From assembly GCA_964484005.1 (NCBI GenBank), contig CAZADR010000004.1, forward strand, positions 1-60,771: a DNA stretch of 60,771 nt, written 5' to 3'. The notes below the pieces were generated by a model. The model did not search any database and was not told the origin of the DNA. It was given only the letters and a program-made list of their open reading frames with translations. The stretch comes from an uncultured Candidatus Saccharibacteria bacterium. Its GTDB lineage: Bacteria; Patescibacteriota; Minisyncoccia; Phycocordibacterales; UBA9973. Made by a program: the position numbers and the translations under genes. Position 1 is the first letter of the stretch. Every line of letters starts with the position of its first letter. This document shows positions 4,385 to 13,312 of the stretch, piece by piece.

Positions 4385-5011
4385 ATGAAAAAGCTTTTCA
4401 TGCTGTTTTGCTTCATCGTCTTGTCGTTCGCTACCGTGGTGAACGCCCAACCGAACATTTTCCCGTCGAGAGAGCAGTGCGAAGCTGCTTTTCTGTCGGG
4501 CACCTACAGTGTGTATGAGCCGAAATTCTTCGGCCTCAAGGAAACCAATCCAGTCGACGGTAAAACAAAAATTACCAATCCTCTGGAATCAAGTGCGTGT
4601 GTGGGAATGCTCACCACCGCCGGAAAGAAGTGGGTGGTTCAAACCGAAGGCACTATCTTACGTTGGAATGTCAACGCAGATGGATCTCTCGGAACCCCCT
4701 ACTCCCGCGACGACTGTGGAAATCCGATTTTTGGAATTTCCTACCCAACAGCACCTCAAGTAGTCGAACATCGTACTCCTGCACCACAACCTCAACCGGT
4801 GGTTGAAATCAATGTAGTGCAGCAAAACGAAAATAGTAGCCCAATCAAAGGGTTGGACTACTACGAGAAACAGTTCAGCGGCCCCACCCCTACTCCTGCC
4901 ACTGAGCAACCCCGCCGCTCTTTCGTGCGAAGGCATTGGAAGGGTATCGCAGGATTGGCAGCTCTGGGAGGAGTTGTCGCATACGGTATCGAGAACTGTT
5001 GGTTTTATTAA
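4385..5011 (+). CDS. Secreted/anchored hypothetical protein (signal peptide, C-terminal hydrophobic anchor), GC-rich
   Basis: 208 aa. N-terminus MKKLFMLFCFIVLSFATVVNAQ, strong SD (AAGGAGAGG), C-terminus GIAGLAALGGVVAYGI. GC content is far above that of the flanks. Confidence 0.7.
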   Translation: MKKLFMLFCFIVLSFATVVNAQPNIFPSREQCEAAFLSGTYSVYEPKFFGLKETNPVDGKTKITNPLESSACVGMLTTAGKKWVVQTEGTILRWNVNADGSLGTPYSRDDCGNPIFGISYPTAPQVVEHRTPAPQPQPVVEINVVQQNENSSPIKGLDYYEKQFSGPTPTPATEQPRRSFVRRHWKGIAGLAALGGVVAYGIENCWFY

Positions 5012-6008: not shown

Positions 6009-6153
6009 ATTTTTTATATAATATTATCAAACTCAATGTAATAATTTAAAAACCTACACGTCATGGTGTAAGAGTTTGTATACTTGACATGTAAAACCAT
6101 GTATGATACAATATAAGATATTACTTATTAACAGAATTTTAATACAAAACCAT

Positions 6154-8352
6154 ATGAAGAAAATCAATCAATATCTACAGGGCACAGTCGCATTAACCAT
6201 ACTAGCTATCGGAGCTATATTTTTTGGACTTTCTTTCAAAAATGTAGAGGCCGCTGATTTAGTTTCGGGTAGCATAGGCATTACCCCAAACACGATCAAT
6301 GCAGGGGAATCCGCTACTATACAGTGGAGTTCTTATAACGCTACCGTAATTTCAATTACGCCTGGCGTAGGGAGTGTTGCTTCATCTGGAAGTATTACAG
6401 TTCGTCCGACCCAAACCACTACCTACACCTTAAATATTAGCAACAGCACCAGTGCTACTACTGCGACTGCCACTGTTAATGTAATCCAAACACAGCAAGA
6501 TTTCTGTCCCAATATTGCTGGTACTCAGACTTCTGTTCCATCAGGAATGCACATAGATAATAATGGAAATTGTGTGACTAATTATACTCCGCCACCTGCT
6601 ACTGATGTCTGCCCCAATATCGCTGGTACCCAAACTTATGTTCCATCAGGAATGCACATAGACAATAATGGAAATTGTGTGACTGACTATGTTCCTACTG
6701 ATTTCTGTCCCAATATCGCTGGTACTCAAACTTCTGTTCCATCAGGAATGCACATAGATAATAATGGAAATTGTGTGACTAATTATACTCCGCCACCTGC
6801 TACTGATGTCTGCCCCAATATCGCTGGTACCCAAACTTATGTTCCATCAGGAATGCATATCGATAATAATGGAAACTGTGTTGTTGATACAATCAATAAC
6901 AATATAAGCGTAAATCTAAATGCAGATGATACAAGCATTGATGACGGTGATGAAACTGAGCTCTATTGGACCTCAAACAATGCTGTCTATTGTAATAGAA
7001 CTGGCGGTAGAAATGGCTGGTCTCTAAACAATGTAGGCATTTCCGGAGATTTTGATACAGGAAATTTGTCCTCAGATACAACTTATAGTATTACTTGCTA
7101 CAACAATGTCGGAAATTCTGCTATTGATTCTGTAACAGTTAGAGTAGAGGACGACAACAATAACGACAATGAACCAGATGTAACAACCAGAAACGCAACC
7201 AATGTCACCACATCTAGTGCTACCTTGAATGGAGAAGTAGATGGTAATGGTACCTCTGTTCGTGCTTGGTTTGAATACGGAACAAGTACAAGTCTTGGAT
7301 ATAGAACTTCAGAAAATTCTTACGGTTCTGGTTCAACTGACTACAGTAGAAGTATCTCAGGATTATCTCCAAACACCACATACTACTTCCGCGCAATGGC
7401 AGAAAATTCTGATGGCACAGCTCGTGGAAGTATCCTTACTTTCAGAACAGGACAAGGCTACAACCCACCAGTAAACAATCAACCCACAGTAGTAATCTTT
7501 GCGGATAGTACAAATATATCCTACAACGGAGCTACTACTCTAAGATGGAGTAGCTACAACGCAAGCTCTTGCTTTGCTTCCGGTGGATCTGTCGGCTGGG
7601 CTGGAGTAAAAAGTATTGGACCTGCAAGTTTCTACACTGGTTCATTAACTTCAAACAGAACTTACACCATTACTTGTACAAATAGTTTTGGTTCAGCTAC
7701 TGATTATGTGACTGTAAATGTTCGTGGACGAGTAGTAAATACTCCTGTCACTCCGACTTCTTATGTGATAATTAATTCTTCTGTGGACCGCAATCAACCT
7801 ATCGTTCCAACAATAGACAACACCAGACCTCACCCAGGAGATGAAATCAACTACACTGTAACTTACCAAAACATAGGTAATGCTTCTATCACCAATCTTA
7901 CTTTGAGATTAGACCTTCCTTATGAAGTAGATTATATGTTCTCTACTCCTAATAATCCTATTAGAAATGGAAATACTTTAATCTTCAACCTAGGAACACT
8001 CAGAGCTAATGCACAAGGTACTGTAAATGTAAGAGTACGAGTTCGAGAAAACATAGCCCCCGGAGCGGTCTTAAACTTCCCAGCAATCTTGACCTACACA
8101 GATCCTTTTGGAAATACTCAATCTGTATCTGCCAACGTTTCTGCACAAGTCTGGAGTGGTGACGGTGAAATAAAAAATGAAAGTATCTTCCTTGGAGCAA
8201 ATGTCTTTGGAGCAGATTTTCTTCCAGATAATTTATTCGGATGGTTACTATTACTCATCCTTATATTAATACTTATCTTATTGGCTAGATATCTCTACTC
8301 TGGAGTACAGCCTTTCAAGAAGAGAACAACTACAACCACAGTTCAACACTAA
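6154..8352 (+). CDS. Large cell-surface protein (signal anchor, Cys-repeat modules, FN3-like and DUF11-like regions, C-terminal TM anchor)
   Basis: Start placed at MKKINQYLQGTVALTILAIGAIFF. Contains four CPNIAGTQT[SY]VPSGMHIDNNGNCV repeats, the segments ...LNGEVDGNGTSVRAWFEYGTS...YYFRA... and PHPGDEINYTVTYQNIGNASITNL, and ends in LLLLILILILILLARYLY. Confidence 0.8.
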   Translation: MKKINQYLQGTVALTILAIGAIFFGLSFKNVEAADLVSGSIGITPNTINAGESATIQWSSYNATVISITPGVGSVASSGSITVRPTQTTTYTLNISNSTSATTATATVNVIQTQQDFCPNIAGTQTSVPSGMHIDNNGNCVTNYTPPPATDVCPNIAGTQTYVPSGMHIDNNGNCVTDYVPTDFCPNIAGTQTSVPSGMHIDNNGNCVTNYTPPPATDVCPNIAGTQTYVPSGMHIDNNGNCVVDTINNNISVNLNADDTSIDDGDETELYWTSNNAVYCNRTGGRNGWSLNNVGISGDFDTGNLSSDTTYSITCYNNVGNSAIDSVTVRVEDDNNNDNEPDVTTRNATNVTTSSATLNGEVDGNGTSVRAWFEYGTSTSLGYRTSENSYGSGSTDYSRSISGLSPNTTYYFRAMAENSDGTARGSILTFRTGQGYNPPVNNQPTVVIFADSTNISYNGATTLRWSSYNASSCFASGGSVGWAGVKSIGPASFYTGSLTSNRTYTITCTNSFGSATDYVTVNVRGRVVNTPVTPTSYVIINSSVDRNQPIVPTIDNTRPHPGDEINYTVTYQNIGNASITNLTLRLDLPYEVDYMFSTPNNPIRNGNTLIFNLGTLRANAQGTVNVRVRVRENIAPGAVLNFPAILTYTDPFGNTQSVSANVSAQVWSGDGEIKNESIFLGANVFGADFLPDNLFGWLLLLILILILILLARYLYSGVQPFKKRTTTTTVQH
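6499..6900 (+). repeat. In-frame tandem repeat: two near-identical 201-bp units, each made of two ~100-bp subunits
   Basis: GATTTCTGTCCCAATAT... recurs at 6499 and 6700; GATGTCTGCCCCAATATCGC... recurs at 6604 and 6805. Confidence 0.9.
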
Positions 8353-8380: not shown

Positions 8381-8424
8381 TACCCCCACACCTATTTGTT
8401 TGATTTAAAATAGGTGTGGGGGTA
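8381..8424 (+). repeat. 44-nt conserved hairpin element, copy 1 (16-bp perfect stem, 12-nt loop)
   Basis: TACCCCCACACCTATT-tgtttgatttaa-AATAGGTGTGGGGGTA. A near-identical copy lies at 31163..31204. Confidence 0.85.
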
Positions 8425-8434
8425 TATTTGTTTT

Positions 8435-9130
8435 ATGGCCATGGATAAAGATACAGAAAAAGAAACAGAATCATACCCAATGCGAATTAATAAATACCTC
8501 GCATTAAAACAAATCTCCACTAGGAGGGGGGCTGACGAACTGGTAGAAAATAAAAAAGTATTTATCAATGGTAAGCTTGCCGTACTAGGCAGCAAAGTAA
8601 ATGAAACAGATAAAGTAGAAATAAGAGGTTCTAAGCAAAAAGAATATGTTTACTATGCCTACAACAAGCCTATTGGCACCGAGACCAGCTCTCCAAGAGA
8701 AGACCTATTCCCTCTCGGCAGGCTAGATAAGAATTCTCACGGCCTACTCATCCTCACCAATGACGGACGCATTACCGACCGACTTTTAAATCCAAAATAT
8801 TTTCACGAAAAAGAATATGTTGTTCGTACTAAAGAAAAACTTCGCTCTAGTTTTAAACAAAAAATGGAAGCTGGAGTAAATATTGAAGGTTATCAAACTC
8901 AAAAATGCAAAGTAAAAATATTGGGTCCCAACACTTTCAAGGTAATTTTAACTGAAGGAAAGAAACACCAAATTCGCCGAATGTGTTCCACACTATTTCA
9001 AGAAGTAGCAGATTTGAAACGCGAAAGAATCATGAACATAAAACTCGGCACCCTAAAAGAAAAAGGACTCAGGGAAATAAAAGGAGAAGAACTTTCTACT
9101 TTTCTAGATCAAGTACTTCATCAATCCTAA
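8435..9130 (+). CDS. Pseudouridine synthase, RsuA/RluF family (S4 domain + catalytic domain)
   Basis: MRINKYLALKQISTRRGADELVENKKVFINGK is an S4 domain; GRLDKNSHGLLILTNDG contains the catalytic Asp motif. The start is uncertain (8435 or 8480; the ORF opens at 8414). Confidence 0.85.
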   Translation: MAMDKDTEKETESYPMRINKYLALKQISTRRGADELVENKKVFINGKLAVLGSKVNETDKVEIRGSKQKEYVYYAYNKPIGTETSSPREDLFPLGRLDKNSHGLLILTNDGRITDRLLNPKYFHEKEYVVRTKEKLRSSFKQKMEAGVNIEGYQTQKCKVKILGPNTFKVILTEGKKHQIRRMCSTLFQEVADLKRERIMNIKLGTLKEKGLREIKGEELSTFLDQVLHQS

Positions 9131-9136
9131 TTTGTT
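9096..9136. repeat. 41-bp direct repeat, copy A (flanks the DGR cassette)
   Basis: CTACTTTTCTAGATCAAGTACTTCATCAATCCTAATTTGTT compared with copy B at 11773..11813 (CTATTTTTCTAAATCCAATACTTCATCAATCCTAATTTGTT). There are 4 mismatches and the last 25 nt are identical. Confidence 0.9.
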
Positions 9137-10097
9137 GTCTTAATTTATATTCATCTCCATGCGAGAGCATCCCCAAATAAGATTGAACGGATTCCTCTTT
9201 TGGATTCTGTGCAAGATTCCTCAACATTCTGTTTTTAGTAGTGGTTCTCAACACTCTATGGTGGGGAAAATTAACCCAACCTAGGAAGTCTACACCTGAG
9301 GCAAGAGTTTTGATATAAACTTTATCTGGGTGCATTTCTAATTTTAATTTCTCTTTTAAATAACCTCTCATATATGATAGGCTAAACAGGGGTTCATCTT
9401 TGTTTTTAGAAAATAAAACAAAATCATCCGCGTAGCGTATGTAATATTTAACTTTCAATTCCCTTTTCACATATTGATCAAATTCATTCATGTAGATATT
9501 AACTAGCAATTGAGAAGTCAGGTTGCCTAAAGGTAATCCAGCTAGGCCTTGCCTAGCTGAGAAACTATCTATCAACTGCCCCAGAAGCCAGAGAACATCT
9601 TTGTCTTGAATGTGTTTCGCCAGAATTTTTTTTAATATTTTATGGTCAATATTGGCAAAAAACTTTCTGATATCGCACTTTAGAACATAGCAGGTTTTAG
9701 TACTGTTTTTTGAAACGATTCTTGAGAAATCTCGGAATCTATTAACGGCTTTGTGGGTGCCTTTGTTTACCCTGCAAGAATATGAATCATGGATGAATTT
9801 GGTGTCGAAAAATAAATATAGTTCTTGATAAATTAAGTGGTGAAGCAGCCTGTCTCTTACTGTAGCTTTATGTATTTCCCTGGGCTTTGGGTCAGAAATA
9901 TTAAACGCGTGATAACCACCATGTTTGTAAGTCTTATTTTTTAAATCACTATAAAGTTCTGATATATTGTCCATCAATCTAGCCTGAAATAAAATTACAT
10001 CTTTTTTGTTTTTCTTATCACGCAAAAATTCCTGCCAAGCTTTGAGCAGTTTTTCTATGGTTATGATATTATCGTATGTATGAATAAATTGTTTCAT
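9096..10097 (-). CDS. DGR-type reverse transcriptase
   Basis: 333 aa. Contains ...NISDPKPREIHKATVRDRLLHHLIY..., GLPLGNLTSQLLVNIYMNEFD (DGR RT signature) and YIRYADDFVLF (YxDD). The last 13 codons lie in direct repeat A and equal the C-terminus of the ABC-F gene. Confidence 0.9.
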   Translation of the reverse strand: MKQFIHTYDNIITIEKLLKAWQEFLRDKKNKKDVILFQARLMDNISELYSDLKNKTYKHGGYHAFNISDPKPREIHKATVRDRLLHHLIYQELYLFFDTKFIHDSYSCRVNKGTHKAVNRFRDFSRIVSKNSTKTCYVLKCDIRKFFANIDHKILKKILAKHIQDKDVLWLLGQLIDSFSARQGLAGLPLGNLTSQLLVNIYMNEFDQYVKRELKVKYYIRYADDFVLFSKNKDEPLFSLSYMRGYLKEKLKLEMHPDKVYIKTLASGVDFLGWVNFPHHRVLRTTTKNRMLRNLAQNPKEESVQSYLGMLSHGDEYKLRQQIRIDEVLDLEK

Positions 10098-10497
10098 GTT
10101 TCTATACCCCCCCCCCGCAGCGCTCTCAGTTCCTTCGGCGCTTCTAAAAACAAAAATTGCCTATTCTTTCTGGTTTAAAATATATAACGACTTCCCCAAA
10201 ACTCATCGCTATACCCTAGGCGGCAAAATTGAAGATTATTTTCTTGGTCTTTTGGAAAATATTTTCATATCCCTCTATCTTCCGCCGGAAACTAAAGCAT
10301 CTCGTCTTGTTGTCGCAATTTCCAAACTGGACGGCATAAAATTTTTCTTGCAAATAGCTTGGGAAAATAAATGTATCAAAGATGAGAAATATTCTTTACT
10401 TTCAGAACACTTACAAGAAATTGGCAGAATGCTCGGTGGCTGGAAGAGAGGCTTGGAAAAGAAAACTCCTCCAACTAAGGAGGAGAAACGGGTTTAG
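10096..10497 (+). CDS. avd: Avd-like four-helix-bundle accessory protein (DGR accessory variability determinant)
   Basis: 133 aa. KIAYSFWFKIYNDFPKTHRYTLGGKIEDYFLGLLENIF... resembles the four-helix-bundle / 23S rRNA IVS protein family. Its start overlaps the RT start within CATG, on the opposite strand. Confidence 0.7.
   Translation: MFLYPPPAALSVPSALLKTKIAYSFWFKIYNDFPKTHRYTLGGKIEDYFLGLLENIFISLYLPPETKASRLVVAISKLDGIKFFLQIAWENKCIKDEKYSLLSEHLQEIGRMLGGWKRGLEKKTPPTKEEKRV
10107..10116. repeat. C10/G10 homopolymer tract
   Basis: Ten consecutive C on the plus strand. They fall in codons 4-7 of avd (Y-P-P-P) and, as G10, lie 10-19 nt upstream of the RT ATG on the minus strand. Confidence 0.95.
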
Positions 10498-10500
10498 TTT

Positions 10501-10613
10501 CGGAGAGAAGATACGATGCCTGTTGTCACTGTTCCAGATGTTGTCGTTCGAAACATGGTTCAGGTTGGCGTTGAGCTTACCGTCATCGTTCACATTCACA
10601 TTGGCAACGAAGA
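10501..10613 (-). repeat. DGR template repeat (TR)
   Basis: Gap-free alignment with 11000..11112. All 21 differences are at minus-strand adenines of this copy. It translates to the Asn-rich sequence NVNVNDDGKLNANLNHVSNDNIWNSDN. Confidence 0.9.
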
Positions 10614-10901
10614 ATTGTAAGATGAGCCATCTATTTCACTGCCGACTTGAGCATATTTTAATATAAAAAGTCGTGCTGTATATTATTTTGGGGTATAGAA
10701 CCCCACCAGCTCACCCCACCAACTTTTATGTTTTTTGTTTTAAAAAAGAATTTACTCTTCTCTAAGTTTTAGCCGAGAGAACTCTCAAATTAGTTTTTAA
10801 GTAATCACGGCTTGAAGTGTTGACCGCAAGCATTTCCCGATTACAAGTTCAGTATATTAAAAAAATTCAAAAGGGTCAAAGTAAAAAAGTTTCAAAGTGG
10901 C

Positions 10902-10938
10902 AAAAAAAATCCCGAGTTACGATGATTTGTAACTCGGG
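10902..10938 (-). terminator. Rho-independent terminator of the DGR target gene
   Basis: On the minus strand: CCCGAGTTAC-aaatcatc-GTAACTCGGG followed by T8. Confidence 0.75.
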
Positions 10939-10966
10939 AGAGCGATTCGTCGCTCGACGTTTGGCG

Positions 10967-11656
10967 TTATGCCGATTCGGAGGAAACAAGTGCCTGTTGC
11001 GGAGAGAAGATACGATGCCTGAGGCCACTGCTCCAGATGTAGCCGCCCGAAACATGGCACAGGCCGGCGCGGAGCCCACCGTCATCGTCCACACCCACAC
11101 GGGCAACGAAGACATTTGAGAGGTCTTCGGTGACTACTTCATCGCCCCTGGTGAGGACGAAGAAGTTAGCGTAGCCGTTTCTCTGAAGCTTGTCTGAATC
11201 ATCCAGACAGAGACTCAGGAATTGACTACCGAGCAGACGAAACTTCTCGAGTTCCTCTGCGGTGTTGCCGAGGAACTCGGTGAACTGCCCGTTACGCACG
11301 AGCTCGTCAGCAGCAACTTCGGTCTCGGGAGCAACTCCCGAGAATACGATGCCAAAGCTTTCGAACTCTGGAGCGAAGTAGCCTCGGAATACTTTGCGCG
11401 CCGTTGAGTAGGTGTCCTTACCACTCGTCGCACCGAGCTTGAGGGTGAAGAGATGGCGGAGGTAGGTTTTGACCTCCTTCGTCGTTTCCACCACTTTCTT
11501 CCTCCACTCCCTCACAAACTTCGCGAGGTCGTTGAAGAATTCGATGTCATCCTCCGGACGACCTAGACGGTTGGCGATGTCGAGCAGAAGCCCGAGCATC
11601 TTTACAGGAACTCCGACGAGTGCACGAGTGAGCGGGCCGAGCATATCCTTAGACAT
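10967..11656 (-). CDS. DGR variable (target) protein, unknown fold, no signal peptide, GC-rich
   Basis: 229 aa. The VR occupies the C-terminal ~38 codons (...FVARVGVDDDGGLRAGLCHVSGGYIWSSGLRHRIF...). Confidence 0.85.
   Translation of the reverse strand: MSKDMLGPLTRALVGVPVKMLGLLLDIANRLGRPEDDIEFFNDLAKFVREWRKKVVETTKEVKTYLRHLFTLKLGATSGKDTYSTARKVFRGYFAPEFESFGIVFSGVAPETEVAADELVRNGQFTEFLGNTAEELEKFRLLGSQFLSLCLDDSDKLQRNGYANFFVLTRGDEVVTEDLSNVFVARVGVDDDGGLRAGLCHVSGGYIWSSGLRHRIFSPQQALVSSESA
11000..11112 (-). repeat. DGR variable repeat (VR)
   Basis: Counterpart of the TR at an offset of 499 nt. 11000..11021 is identical to TR 10501..10522 (IMH-like end). Confidence 0.9.
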
Positions 11657-11772
11657 GATCTCTTTCTCCTTTCAGGAGCTGTTCTATATGGCAACGAAAT
11701 TGTCACCATAGCTTTAATTCAAAGGACTTAATACTCTTATATTATACACCCAATGGATGAAAAAGTCAAGGG

Positions 11773-11813
11773 CTATTTTTCTAAATCCAATACTTCATCA
11801 ATCCTAATTTGTT
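11773..11813. repeat. 41-bp direct repeat, copy B
   Basis: Lies at the 3' end of the ABC-F gene. See copy A at 9096..9136. Confidence 0.9.
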
Positions 11814-13269
11814 TTACGAATTCAGGAACATGGGAAACCAAAATCATGGCACCCTTATATTCGTCTAACGCTTTAGCTATTATAGGTAAATGACGGAAAT
11901 TTATATGATTTGTTGGCTCATCTAATATTAAGAGTCCAGGTTTTTGAAGAACTAATCGAGCAAAAGCAACCAGGCCCTTTTGCCCCTCAGATAGGTCTCC
12001 TATTTTAGTACGAATAAATTCCTCAGTAATTAAAAATCCAGCAGCAATGGAACGCATCCTTTCTTCATCTAGTCTTTCCCCGCCTTCCTGCATGGCAGTC
12101 GCCAATGATTGATAAACAGTATCTTCAAAGTTTAAAGTAGAAAAATCTTGCCTATAATATCCAATACGAATTCCCTCTTTTACTTTTTCTCCTTCTGCGT
12201 GCCCACTAGCGAGTCTTTCTAGTAGAGTAGTTTTACCTATACCATTTGGTCCCTGCAGGAGTAAGTGTTGATTTTTATTTAAAGAAATGTGCGCTTTTCG
12301 TTTTATTATTTTCCCATCTTTCATGGTGGTAAAAGAAGAAATTTTTAAAATCTCCCCTATTAAGTCTGGTTGAGAAAGAATGATAAATGGCCTAATGGCC
12401 TTGTCTTCTTTTCTGACATCCACGATTTCCTCTTCGAGTTCTTCTGCTTTTTCACGCATTCTTTTGGCCACCAAGCGTAGTCGCCCCCCTTTATAAGCAA
12501 AAACATTGGCTTGCTCTTTTTTAGCCTGAATTTCTTTTTGAAGCTGAGCATTTTTCATATTTTCTTTTTCTACCCGAGCGACAATGTCTTTTACCACATT
12601 AAAATAGTTACCTACATATTGCTCTATCTTTTTTGTATACACATCTAAATAAAGCACACCTTCAGTAAAGGCATTTAAAAATTCTGCATCGTGGGATATG
12701 ACCAAAACTGTTTTTTTATAACTAACCAAGAATTTTGTCAGGTGGGCAATCCCAGCTTTATCTAGATTATTTGTCGGTTCATCAAGTAAAAGCAAATCTG
12801 GATCTTGGATGAGGGCTCCCGCCAAAAGAAGTCGCGCTTGTTGCCCTCCAGAAAAATCTTTAATAAGCTTGTCGTGAATTTTAGTGTGTCCTCTTAAATT
12901 TACTACTTCTAACACATCATCAATTTTAGGATCAATATCGTAAACCTTAACCTTAAAACATTTTTCAAAAAATTCTCGAACAGTCAAATCTAGCTCCTCA
13001 CGAGGGATTACTTGTCTCGCCGAAGCGATACTTACACCTTTAACTACATTTATGATTCCTGATTCAGGGGTATTTAAACCAGAAATCAAACCAAAGATAG
13101 TACTCTTTCCTGCCCCATTCTGACCCATTAAGGTGAGCTTTACTCCACGCCTTATGGTAAAGCTAACTTCTTCTAAAATAGGCTTGTTTACACCCCATTC
13201 AAAAGAAACATTGTCGAATCTGACTATGGTTTCCTGTGTTTTTGGATTATCTTTAGTTTCCTTAGACAT
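11773..13269 (-). CDS. ABC-F family ATPase (two ABC cassettes, no TM domain)
   Basis: Two Walker A sites (GQNGAGKST, GPNGIGKTT), two LSGGQ-like signatures (FSGGQQ, LSEGQK) and two Walker B sites (LLLLDEPTN, LLILDEPTN), joined by a charged linker. The ATG at 13269 is preferred over the TTG at 13272. Confidence 0.9.
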   Translation of the reverse strand: MSKETKDNPKTQETIVRFDNVSFEWGVNKPILEEVSFTIRRGVKLTLMGQNGAGKSTIFGLISGLNTPESGIINVVKGVSIASARQVIPREELDLTVREFFEKCFKVKVYDIDPKIDDVLEVVNLRGHTKIHDKLIKDFSGGQQARLLLAGALIQDPDLLLLDEPTNNLDKAGIAHLTKFLVSYKKTVLVISHDAEFLNAFTEGVLYLDVYTKKIEQYVGNYFNVVKDIVARVEKENMKNAQLQKEIQAKKEQANVFAYKGGRLRLVAKRMREKAEELEEEIVDVRKEDKAIRPFIILSQPDLIGEILKISSFTTMKDGKIIKRKAHISLNKNQHLLLQGPNGIGKTTLLERLASGHAEGEKVKEGIRIGYYRQDFSTLNFEDTVYQSLATAMQEGGERLDEERMRSIAAGFLITEEFIRTKIGDLSEGQKGLVAFARLVLQKPGLLILDEPTNHINFRHLPIIAKALDEYKGAMILVSHVPEFVKQIRIDEVLDLEK

Positions 13270-13312
13270 CAATGTAGATTAGCTTATTTAGGCTTAAATA
13301 GAAAGGGCTTGA

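Follow-up and report, generated by a model that had tools for sequence, protein, structure and literature searches.

In the diversity-generating retroelement (DGR) of Bordetella phage BPP-1, whose parts are ordered mtd-avd-TR-brt, sequence is transferred from a template repeat (TR) to a variable repeat (VR) at the C-terminus of the target protein, a phage tail fibre, and this transfer is adenine-specific. The Avd accessory protein is present in about 74% of DGRs, the reverse transcriptases (RTs) of these elements harbor a [I/L/V]GxxxSQ motif that replaces the retroviral QGxxxSP, and their VRs are typically, though not obligatorily, displayed on a C-type lectin or an immunoglobulin (Ig) fold. 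The Bordetella ribonucleoprotein has an Avd-binding stem-loop just downstream of the TR, and such stem-loops have been predicted at that place in 207 of 278 DGRs (Handa et al., bioRxiv 10.1101/2023.10.23.563531). In the candidate phyla radiation (CPR), architecture B3, 'TR-(avd)-RT', makes up 90% of the DGR set (Wu et al. 2018, NAR, PMC5758913). The element described here occupies positions 9096-11822 of contig CAZADR010000004.1, of which the whole analysed stretch of 60,771 nt is called the window below. It is read as an intact chromosomal DGR of a CPR/Patescibacteria lineage, with a probability of roughly 0.9. A preliminary description of this DNA had already proposed a complete DGR, and the proposal holds: the TR and the VR differ at adenines only, the RT resembles the bRT of BPP-1, Avd passes its Pfam threshold, and the same cassette is found in 55 of 55 related loci with a TR/VR pair.

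The repeat pair is the first line of evidence. On re-alignment, the TR and the VR match without gaps at an offset of 499 nt, as had been reported, and all 21 differences fall at a plus-strand T of the TR, that is, at an adenine of the minus strand. Read in the coding sense, A is replaced by G at 15 sites and by T and by C at 3 each, and the positions that are not adenine in the template are 100% identical over the 113 nt. With adenine at 32 of the 113 TR positions, the probability that 21 of 21 differences would fall on it by chance is 3e-12. The earlier count of 29 template adenines within 10523-10613 is also reproduced (the whole TR has 32), and so is the identity of 10501-10522 with 11000-11021. 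In the frame of the target, 15 of the template adenines occupy codon position 1, 17 occupy position 2 and none occupies position 3, which bears out the AAY template design that had been proposed; the changes themselves are distributed as 10 at position 1 and 11 at position 2. The TR translates to FVANVNVNDDGKLNANLNHVSNDNIWNSDNRHRIFSP and the VR to FVARVGVDDDGGLRAGLCHVSGGYIWSSGLRHRIFSP. An ordinary segmental duplication, drifted and unrelated to the RT, would explain only the existence of a 113-nt direct repeat; it is refuted by the restriction of the differences to one base type on one strand, by the placement of the template adenines in the codons and by the recurrence of the pattern beside the same RT in 55 loci, and its probability is practically nil.

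The limits and the spectrum of this transfer can be traced in the relatives. The repeat finder stretches the match to 10497-10622 and 10996-11121, which brings in an extra mismatch at position 10500, where the TR has A and the VR has C. In the relatives, VRs always read ..CCG-C-AAC where the TRs read ..CCG-A-AAC, whatever the VR variant, so this mismatch is a fixed TR/VR difference that marks the end of homology and not a product of mutagenesis, and the boundary at 10501 holds. The fixed TR-to-VR changes across 55 pairs comprise 57% A>G, 26% A>T and 16% A>C (n = 932). No second VR-like copy is found in the 60.8-kb window.

The RT provides the second line of evidence. Its best relative in the PDB is 8ub7_A (E 2.8e-36), which shows 100% identity with the brt of phage BPP-1 over the matched segment; a group II intron RT (5e-17) and retron-type RTs (about 1e-15) come next. 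The open reading frame (ORF) at 9096-10097 contains the motifs GNLTSQ, here as LGNLTSQ, and YADD, both of which had been pointed out before. It could be argued that the RT is that of a group II intron or a retron, or one of the defence RTs (DRT/Abi), since public annotations of its homologues read 'retron-type' or 'group II intron reverse transcriptase', and weak matches to group II, Drt and retron profiles do exist. All of these stay far under their cut-offs, as the RT scores 142.6 bits against the 300 of the NCBIfam group II RT/maturase model TIGR04416, 55 against the 235 of the retron model NF038233 and 82 against the 200 of Drt3a. A search of the window with Rfam returned tRNAs only, with no group II intron or retron RNA family, the closest structure is bRT, and the TR/VR pair and Avd lie next to the gene, all of which makes a non-DGR origin very improbable. 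Judged by such scores, the RT is closest to bRT and below the group II and retron cut-offs, and sequence comparison supports an enzyme of DGR type, far closer to the BPP-1 RT than to the RTs of group II introns or retrons. The protein encoded beside it, described earlier as Avd-like, reaches 50.4 bits with the Pfam family bAvd PF22296, whose cut-off is 40.

Homologues of this cassette are numerous. A scan for related RTs, with one genome per species, yielded 532 loci; the best 80 of these are 61-78% identical, and nearly all of those 80 are labelled as metagenome-assembled genomes of Patescibacteria/CPR (Nomurabacteria, Paceibacterota and others, and a few with other labels). In the protein database there are at least 7,962 RT homologues at E <= 1e-60. 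Related loci were screened for repeat pairs with adenine-only mismatches, and the 55 loci obtained, including the window, all have the same layout, in which the VR lies at the 3' end of the target ORF, the TR follows in the same orientation, then an inverted avd, and finally the RT; the distance from VR to TR is 380-820 nt, mostly 430-520. As read from the order of its parts, target - TR - (avd, inverted) - RT, the window is of architecture B3, and because this layout matches B3 and the RT has so many homologues, the element is considered an ordinary member of the well-known CPR B3 class. It shares with the B3 DGRs of PMC5758913 the gene order, the inversion of avd between TR and RT, the small single upstream target with its VR at the 3' end, a host of Paceibacterota/Nomurabacteria type, and RT homologues that are 61-81% identical. 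Its target lacks a recognisable domain, like the 'UVR' classes of PMC5758913, and the core anatomy is no different. Three features treated below, namely the simple-sequence tract in the 5' part of avd, the high GC content of the targets and the copying of a host gene's end at the flanks, were not found in the papers that could be searched.

The likeness to the BPP-1 DGR extends to the adenine-specific transfer from TR to VR, the homologous RT, the presence of Avd, the position of the VR at the target C-terminus and the stem-loop just downstream of the TR. The two systems differ in that avd lies here on the opposite strand, between TR and RT, so that the RNA downstream of the TR is antisense to avd. 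No GC-rich cruciform is conserved behind the VR in the lineage of the window, a homopolymer tract is missing from the BPP-1 cassette, and the window target is a cellular protein of 229 aa that has no fold match to Mtd and is not a phage tail fibre. The features of the locus are listed in Table 1.

Table 1. Position, strand and properties of the features of the retroelement and its borders in the window
Feature	Coordinates	Strand	Remarks
RT gene of the DGR	9096..10097	-	333 aa; Pfam RVT_1, E 1.9e-22
avd accessory gene	10096..10497	+ (opposite RT, TR and target)	133 aa from ATG 10096
Homopolymeric tract C10	10107..10116	+	codons 4-7 of avd; on the RT strand, G10 lying 9 nt before the RT ATG
Small hairpin AGCGC-(14 nt)-GCGCT	10119..10142		beside the tract; from sequence and RT-upstream alignment
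Stem-loop CTCCTCC-ttagtt-GGAGGAG + TTTTCTTTTC	10456..10485 (hairpin 10466-10485)	-	directly 3' of the TR; terminator-like scan
TR	10501..10613	-	113 nt; 32 adenines on the - strand, all at codon position 1 or 2
Promoter-like TTGACC-17-TATACT	10851..10879	-	upstream of the TR; consensus scan 10/12
Intrinsic terminator of the target gene	10902..10939	-	11-bp stem, 8-nt loop, T8; fold z-score -4.6
6-bp hairpin GAGCGA-ttcg-TCGCTC	10940..10955	-	abuts the target-gene terminator
Target gene	10967..11656	-	229 aa (alternative start: 225 aa); VR is codons 182-218
VR	11000..11112	-	encodes residues 182-218 of the 229-aa target protein
Promoter-like TTGACT-17-TATAAT	11741..11769	-	upstream of the target gene; consensus scan 11/12
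Left direct repeat copy	9096..9145		forms the RT 3' end; overlaps the convergent pseudouridine synthase gene 8414-9130
Right direct repeat copy	11773..11822		3' end of the ABC-F gene 11773-13272

The activity of such elements in nature can be followed by comparing contigs, taken from different samples, whose encoded RTs are identical. Six contigs of the group P0100 have five VRs and identical TRs, and 21 of their 22 variable VR columns are templated by TR adenines; the corresponding shares are 21/22 in P0090 and 15/15 in P0109. Judged from these sequences, the lineage is demonstrably diversifying its VR in nature, because contigs with an identical RT vary almost only at adenine-templated VR columns.

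The genes avd and RT lie on opposite strands, a point absent from the preliminary description, and stand head to head with overlapping 5' ends, the RT ATG (10097-10095) and the avd ATG (10096-10098) sharing the palindrome CATG at 10095-10098, and the promoter of each gene must therefore lie within the other. Promoter-like sites for avd are seen inside the RT gene at 9940-9995, as consensus matches only. The conserved canonical avd start in relatives is an ATG antisense to RT codon 6 (MNKL[S/P/F]H...). The equivalent ATG of the window, 10080, is out of frame at the tract length found here, and a second ATG, 10096, created by the C that precedes the RT start codon, is in frame with Avd. Because C10 leaves avd in frame with ATG 10096, the window element is predicted to be competent. 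Beside the tract, at the place of the small hairpin 10119-10142, close relatives carry AGCGC-YGANG-GCGCT; the loop of the window is 9 nt longer, which adds 3 residues to Avd.

The C10 tract is the only G/C run of at least 7 nt in the window, and a simple-sequence repeat is found at the avd 5' end in 75 of 76 related loci with avd, the remaining one having none. In nearly all relatives it lies 32-58 nt upstream of the conserved Avd core, and it is mostly a poly-C of 7-12, with a few CT/TC, CA or AG repeats of 7-15 units. Related loci totalling 590 kb contain 79 G/C runs of at least 7 nt, and about 70 of these are located at this junction. Relative to the RT start codon, the tract is 4-10 nt upstream in close relatives, where the G-run could serve as the RT ribosome-binding site, and 13-64 nt upstream in more distant ones. 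Tract length was compared, as it appears in assemblies, within seven strain groups, each made up of contigs encoding an identical RT, and it is polymorphic in four of them. The four contigs of P0120 have G8, G9, G9 and G9 and no other difference in 2.5 kb. Among the ten of P0109, seven have G10 and three have G9, and nine are otherwise identical, the tenth (L232, with G10) being different. The six of P0100 have G8, G8, G9, G9, G10 and G11, and otherwise only their VRs and an N-gap differ, and the two of P0040 have G9 and G11 with one single-nucleotide polymorphism in 3.1 kb. Tract length is constant in P0048 (6 contigs), in P0090 (5 contigs, with VRs that differ) and in the window strain (4 contigs).

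These lengths determine whether avd can be read from its usual start. Only one tract length puts the conserved ATG in the Avd frame, namely C9 in P0100 and P0109 and C8 in P0120, and at the other lengths observed in these three groups no canonical start is in the Avd frame. Gene callers predict a full-length avd in some contigs and a shortened one or none in others, matching the tract frame. An in-frame start lies upstream of the tract in 24 of the 76 loci; 25 have a start only beyond the tract, no canonical start is in frame in 26, and one lacks the repeat. Contig L232 differs from the rest of its group in its VR and by a few substitutions in the 5' region of the RT. It also lacks one nucleotide beside the tract (near 1685-1700), and this deletion, combined with the out-of-frame G10, puts avd back in frame, as though selection had favoured the in-frame state.

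It is tentatively proposed, at odds slightly short of even, that the tract is a candidate slipped-strand phase switch that would turn Avd, and hence mutagenic homing, on and off stochastically. In the contingency loci of Neisseria, Haemophilus and Campylobacter, likewise, a homopolymer or dinucleotide tract just past the start codon sets the reading frame by its length, and this length varies between otherwise identical genomes; those loci differ in that their genes encode surface antigens or restriction enzymes and not an accessory factor of targeted hypermutation, and the tract lengths considered here come from assemblies. As an alternative, RNA polymerase or ribosome slippage on the tract might give a fixed low dose of Avd. 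The tract might also be a poly-proline or ribosome-binding element whose length variation is neutral. A further alternative is that part of the length variation is homopolymer assembly error, given that short-read assemblies can misstate homopolymer length; as a control, the A/T homopolymers offer two runs of at least 8 nt, both invariant, which are too few to gauge such error. The on/off reading of avd could also be blurred by non-canonical starts (ATA at the RT-overlap position) or by transcriptional slippage. A metagenome scan with a 17-nt pattern beside the tract gave 2 true junctions among 120 matches, and a literature search found no paper mentioning a tract at the avd 5' end.

On the minus strand, the signals of the cassette follow one another as promoter-like site, target, 6-bp hairpin, terminator, promoter-like site, TR, stem-loop and RT, the last being reached antisense through avd. 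The stem-loop directly after the TR has a 7-bp stem and a U-tract, and it overlaps the last avd codons because avd is inverted. All 52 aligned relatives have a hairpin of 5-12 bp right after the TR on the TR strand, followed by TTTTNTTT; 45 distinct stems occur among them, in which the three basal pairs (CTC..GAG) are near-constant and the upper pairs covary. By analogy with the Bordetella ribonucleoprotein, the hairpin at 10466-10485 is probably an Avd-binding stem-loop of the DGR RNA and/or an attenuating terminator between TR and RT. The hairpin at 10940-10955 had also been suggested to act in DGR target recognition. It does exist, but it has no conserved counterpart in relatives and abuts a canonical terminator, and such a role is possible and unsupported. 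In most relatives the 130 nt next to the VR end contain no perfect hairpin, and the hairpins found there in the others are mostly terminator stems followed by T-runs; across DGRs, GC-rich inverted repeats occur downstream of the VR in only 34% (Wu et al. 2018, PMC5758913).

Two RNA duplexes were considered, of which the first was rejected and the second could not be established. The first is a primer:template duplex between the TR 3' end and 10276-10296 (inverted repeat I1), which gives z = 0.1 against shuffles with RNAduplex and whose position is inconsistent in relatives. The second is a Bordetella-like cPRT stop duplex between the sequences upstream and downstream of the TR, with a mean z of -0.3. 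A short conserved GGCAG/CTGCC complementarity around the TR can be seen by eye, without covariation.

The proposed model is that the TR is transcribed on the minus strand from a promoter near 10851-10879, where we infer the start of the TR RNA, and that this RNA would bind Avd and RT, probably through the 3' stem-loop 10466-10485. The RT would then copy the TR into cDNA with misincorporation opposite adenines, and the cDNA would replace the VR at 11000-11112. Such homing could recode up to 17 codons in the C-terminal 37 residues of the 229-aa target, presumably a binding protein. The avd gene abuts the RT gene at its 5' end and is read in the other direction, its first codons running through C10. 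The whole cassette was inserted into the 3' end of the ABC-F gene, leaving a duplication of 41-50 nt.

Several observations weigh against an intact element that works in this manner. No long initiation of mutagenic homing (IMH) zone with protected adenines is found across the 55 TR/VR pairs, and the preliminary description, which had taken 10501-10522 for an IMH-like boundary, is not supported on this point: in the relatives, substitution of template adenines reaches to 5-9 nt from the 3' end of homology, and at 5-19 nt from that end it affects 40-57% of them, approximately the same rate as upstream. The three unchanged adenines of 10501-10522 are compatible with chance, and they are not evidence for a protected zone because the substitution rate of the lineage is the same near the end. 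In addition, a conserved hairpin or cruciform downstream of the VR is absent in relatives, and duplex prediction established neither a primer:template nor a cPRT stop duplex. All promoter assignments are consensus matches only. The best NCBIfam match of Avd, DivGenRetAVD NF033474 (E 3.7e-17), reaches 62.5 bits, which is under its cut-off of 80, and Foldseek shows no resemblance of the modelled target to the C-type lectin or Ig folds that known DGR targets have. Finally, the claim of current activity does not extend to the window strain, because its four assemblies (the window, L086, L087 and L088, from different samples) are identical across the cassette, including the VR and the tract.

A rival reading is that of a fossil DGR, in which the cassette would be intact and no longer diversifying in the window strain, so that the TR/VR differences would record past homing. 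The identity of VR and cassette among assemblies from different samples speaks for it, and so does the fact that most tract alleles in related strains leave avd without an in-frame start, silent states thus being common. However, all ORFs of the window are open, with avd in frame with ATG 10096, the complete identity at non-adenine positions over 113 nt argues for recent homing, and close relatives diversify in nature; consensus assemblies, moreover, hide minority variants. A fossil is hence regarded as unlikely, and an intact DGR is the preferred reading.

The target protein gives no match in searches of Pfam, NCBIfam, PADLOC and the sequences of the PDB, and Pfam gives no match reaching threshold for eight longer members of its family. 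A word-indexed search finds 37 relatives, the few named ones being from Paceibacterota ('Pacebacteria'). When the search is exhaustive and profile-based, the family has 1,656 representatives at E <= 1e-3, of which 998 are at E <= 1e-10, where each representative stands for a cluster at 50% identity. The AlphaFold model, built on a 19-sequence alignment, has a mean predicted local distance difference test score (pLDDT) of 82.7, mostly above 90 at residues 70-220, and it consists of N-terminal helices and an alpha/beta core. The VR is modelled as the strands 182-189 and 195-201 with the loop between them, and the strand 215-219. Foldseek with this model yields nothing significant, its best E being 0.28 in the PDB and 0.23 in BFVD. 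The first 35 or so residues of the target (MSKDMLGPLTRALVGVP.KMLGL..DI.NRL) are common to proteins whose remainder is unrelated (P0030, P0035), which suggests, at the level of sequence, a separate N-terminal module. There are also target homologues with no RT within 6 kb, namely L001 6001-6654 and L004 6001-6687, which are orphan or remote targets and are still GC-enriched; their sites are between ftsH and a helix-turn-helix (HTH) gene, and in a ribosomal protein operon between L5 and S8.

The target gene has 55% GC and a GC content at third codon positions (GC3) of 0.65, against 0.33 locally, in a context of about 36% GC, and GC3 is 0.28-0.38 in RT, avd, ABC-F and the other neighbours. Target homologues elsewhere are enriched likewise, including the orphan L001 with no RT nearby. 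Outside the VR, GC3 exceeds 0.55 in 29 of 47 small targets (150-300 aa), with adjacent RTs at about 0.3; large targets, of about 630 aa, are not enriched. Averaged over 31 GC-rich cassettes, the GC content is 0.38 in the 200 nt upstream of the target, 0.57 in the target, 0.40 in the VR-TR spacer, 0.53 in the TR, 0.39 in avd and 0.36 in the RT, and it climbs within about 60 nt past the start codon and drops about 60 nt past the stop. The target is a sharp GC island bounded by the coding sequence, lineage-wide and across different target families. Two causes for this have been ruled out. Adenine-specific mutagenesis does not account for it, given that third-position A and T are both depleted in targets (0.44x and 0.53x), with both C and G raised. 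Neither does inheritance with one protein family, as GC3 ranges from 0.27 to 0.82 within the family of the window target, and unrelated target families are GC-rich too.

A direct repeat flanks the cassette precisely; its two copies are 84% identical over 50 nt and 90% identical over a 41-nt core (E 6e-12). Each copy supplies the end of a reading frame, QIRIDEVLDLEK*, for the ABC-F protein in one case and for the RT in the other, and the coding differences between them are synonymous, so that the last 12-13 codons and the stop codon of the RT derive from a copy of the ABC-F 3' end. Because the RTs of relatives (L003, L250) have different C-termini, it is the RT that borrowed the old end of the ABC-F gene. 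A like scar is present in L030, where the phosphoglycerate kinase gene (Pgk) and the RT both end in ..IKALG* and a 28-nt repeat is found (2142-2169, 4955-4979). The flanking duplication is significant in only these two loci, the window and L030, and is not a general feature. The cassette is mobile, because relatives sit in quite different genomic places: the gene of the closest RT (81% identity) has prfA and mazEF as its neighbours, and one target homologue is inside a ribosomal protein operon. No integrase or transposase is found in the cassette. The neighbouring gene at 6103-8352 encodes a repeat-rich protein of 749 aa (CPNIAGTQT..NGNCV repeats; Pfam CLIPPER in gene tables), whose counterpart in assemblies of the same strain has 732 aa in L086 and L088 and 665 aa in L087; these differences presumably reflect variation in repeat copy number.

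The element adds one member to a very large described CPR lineage, and its value lies in the avd tract, the GC-rich targets and the unassigned target fold, which are offered as leads. The target family may be a third kind of scaffold for DGR variation, beside the C-type lectin and Ig folds. The GC enrichment of the targets calls for an explanation, which neither adenine mutagenesis nor simple horizontal transfer supplies. As for the tract, if it does act as a phase switch, a second hypermutable site would control whether the hypermutation system runs. The control of DGR activity in cells is poorly understood, and the avd tract offers a concrete hypothesis that would be testable with existing metagenomic reads.

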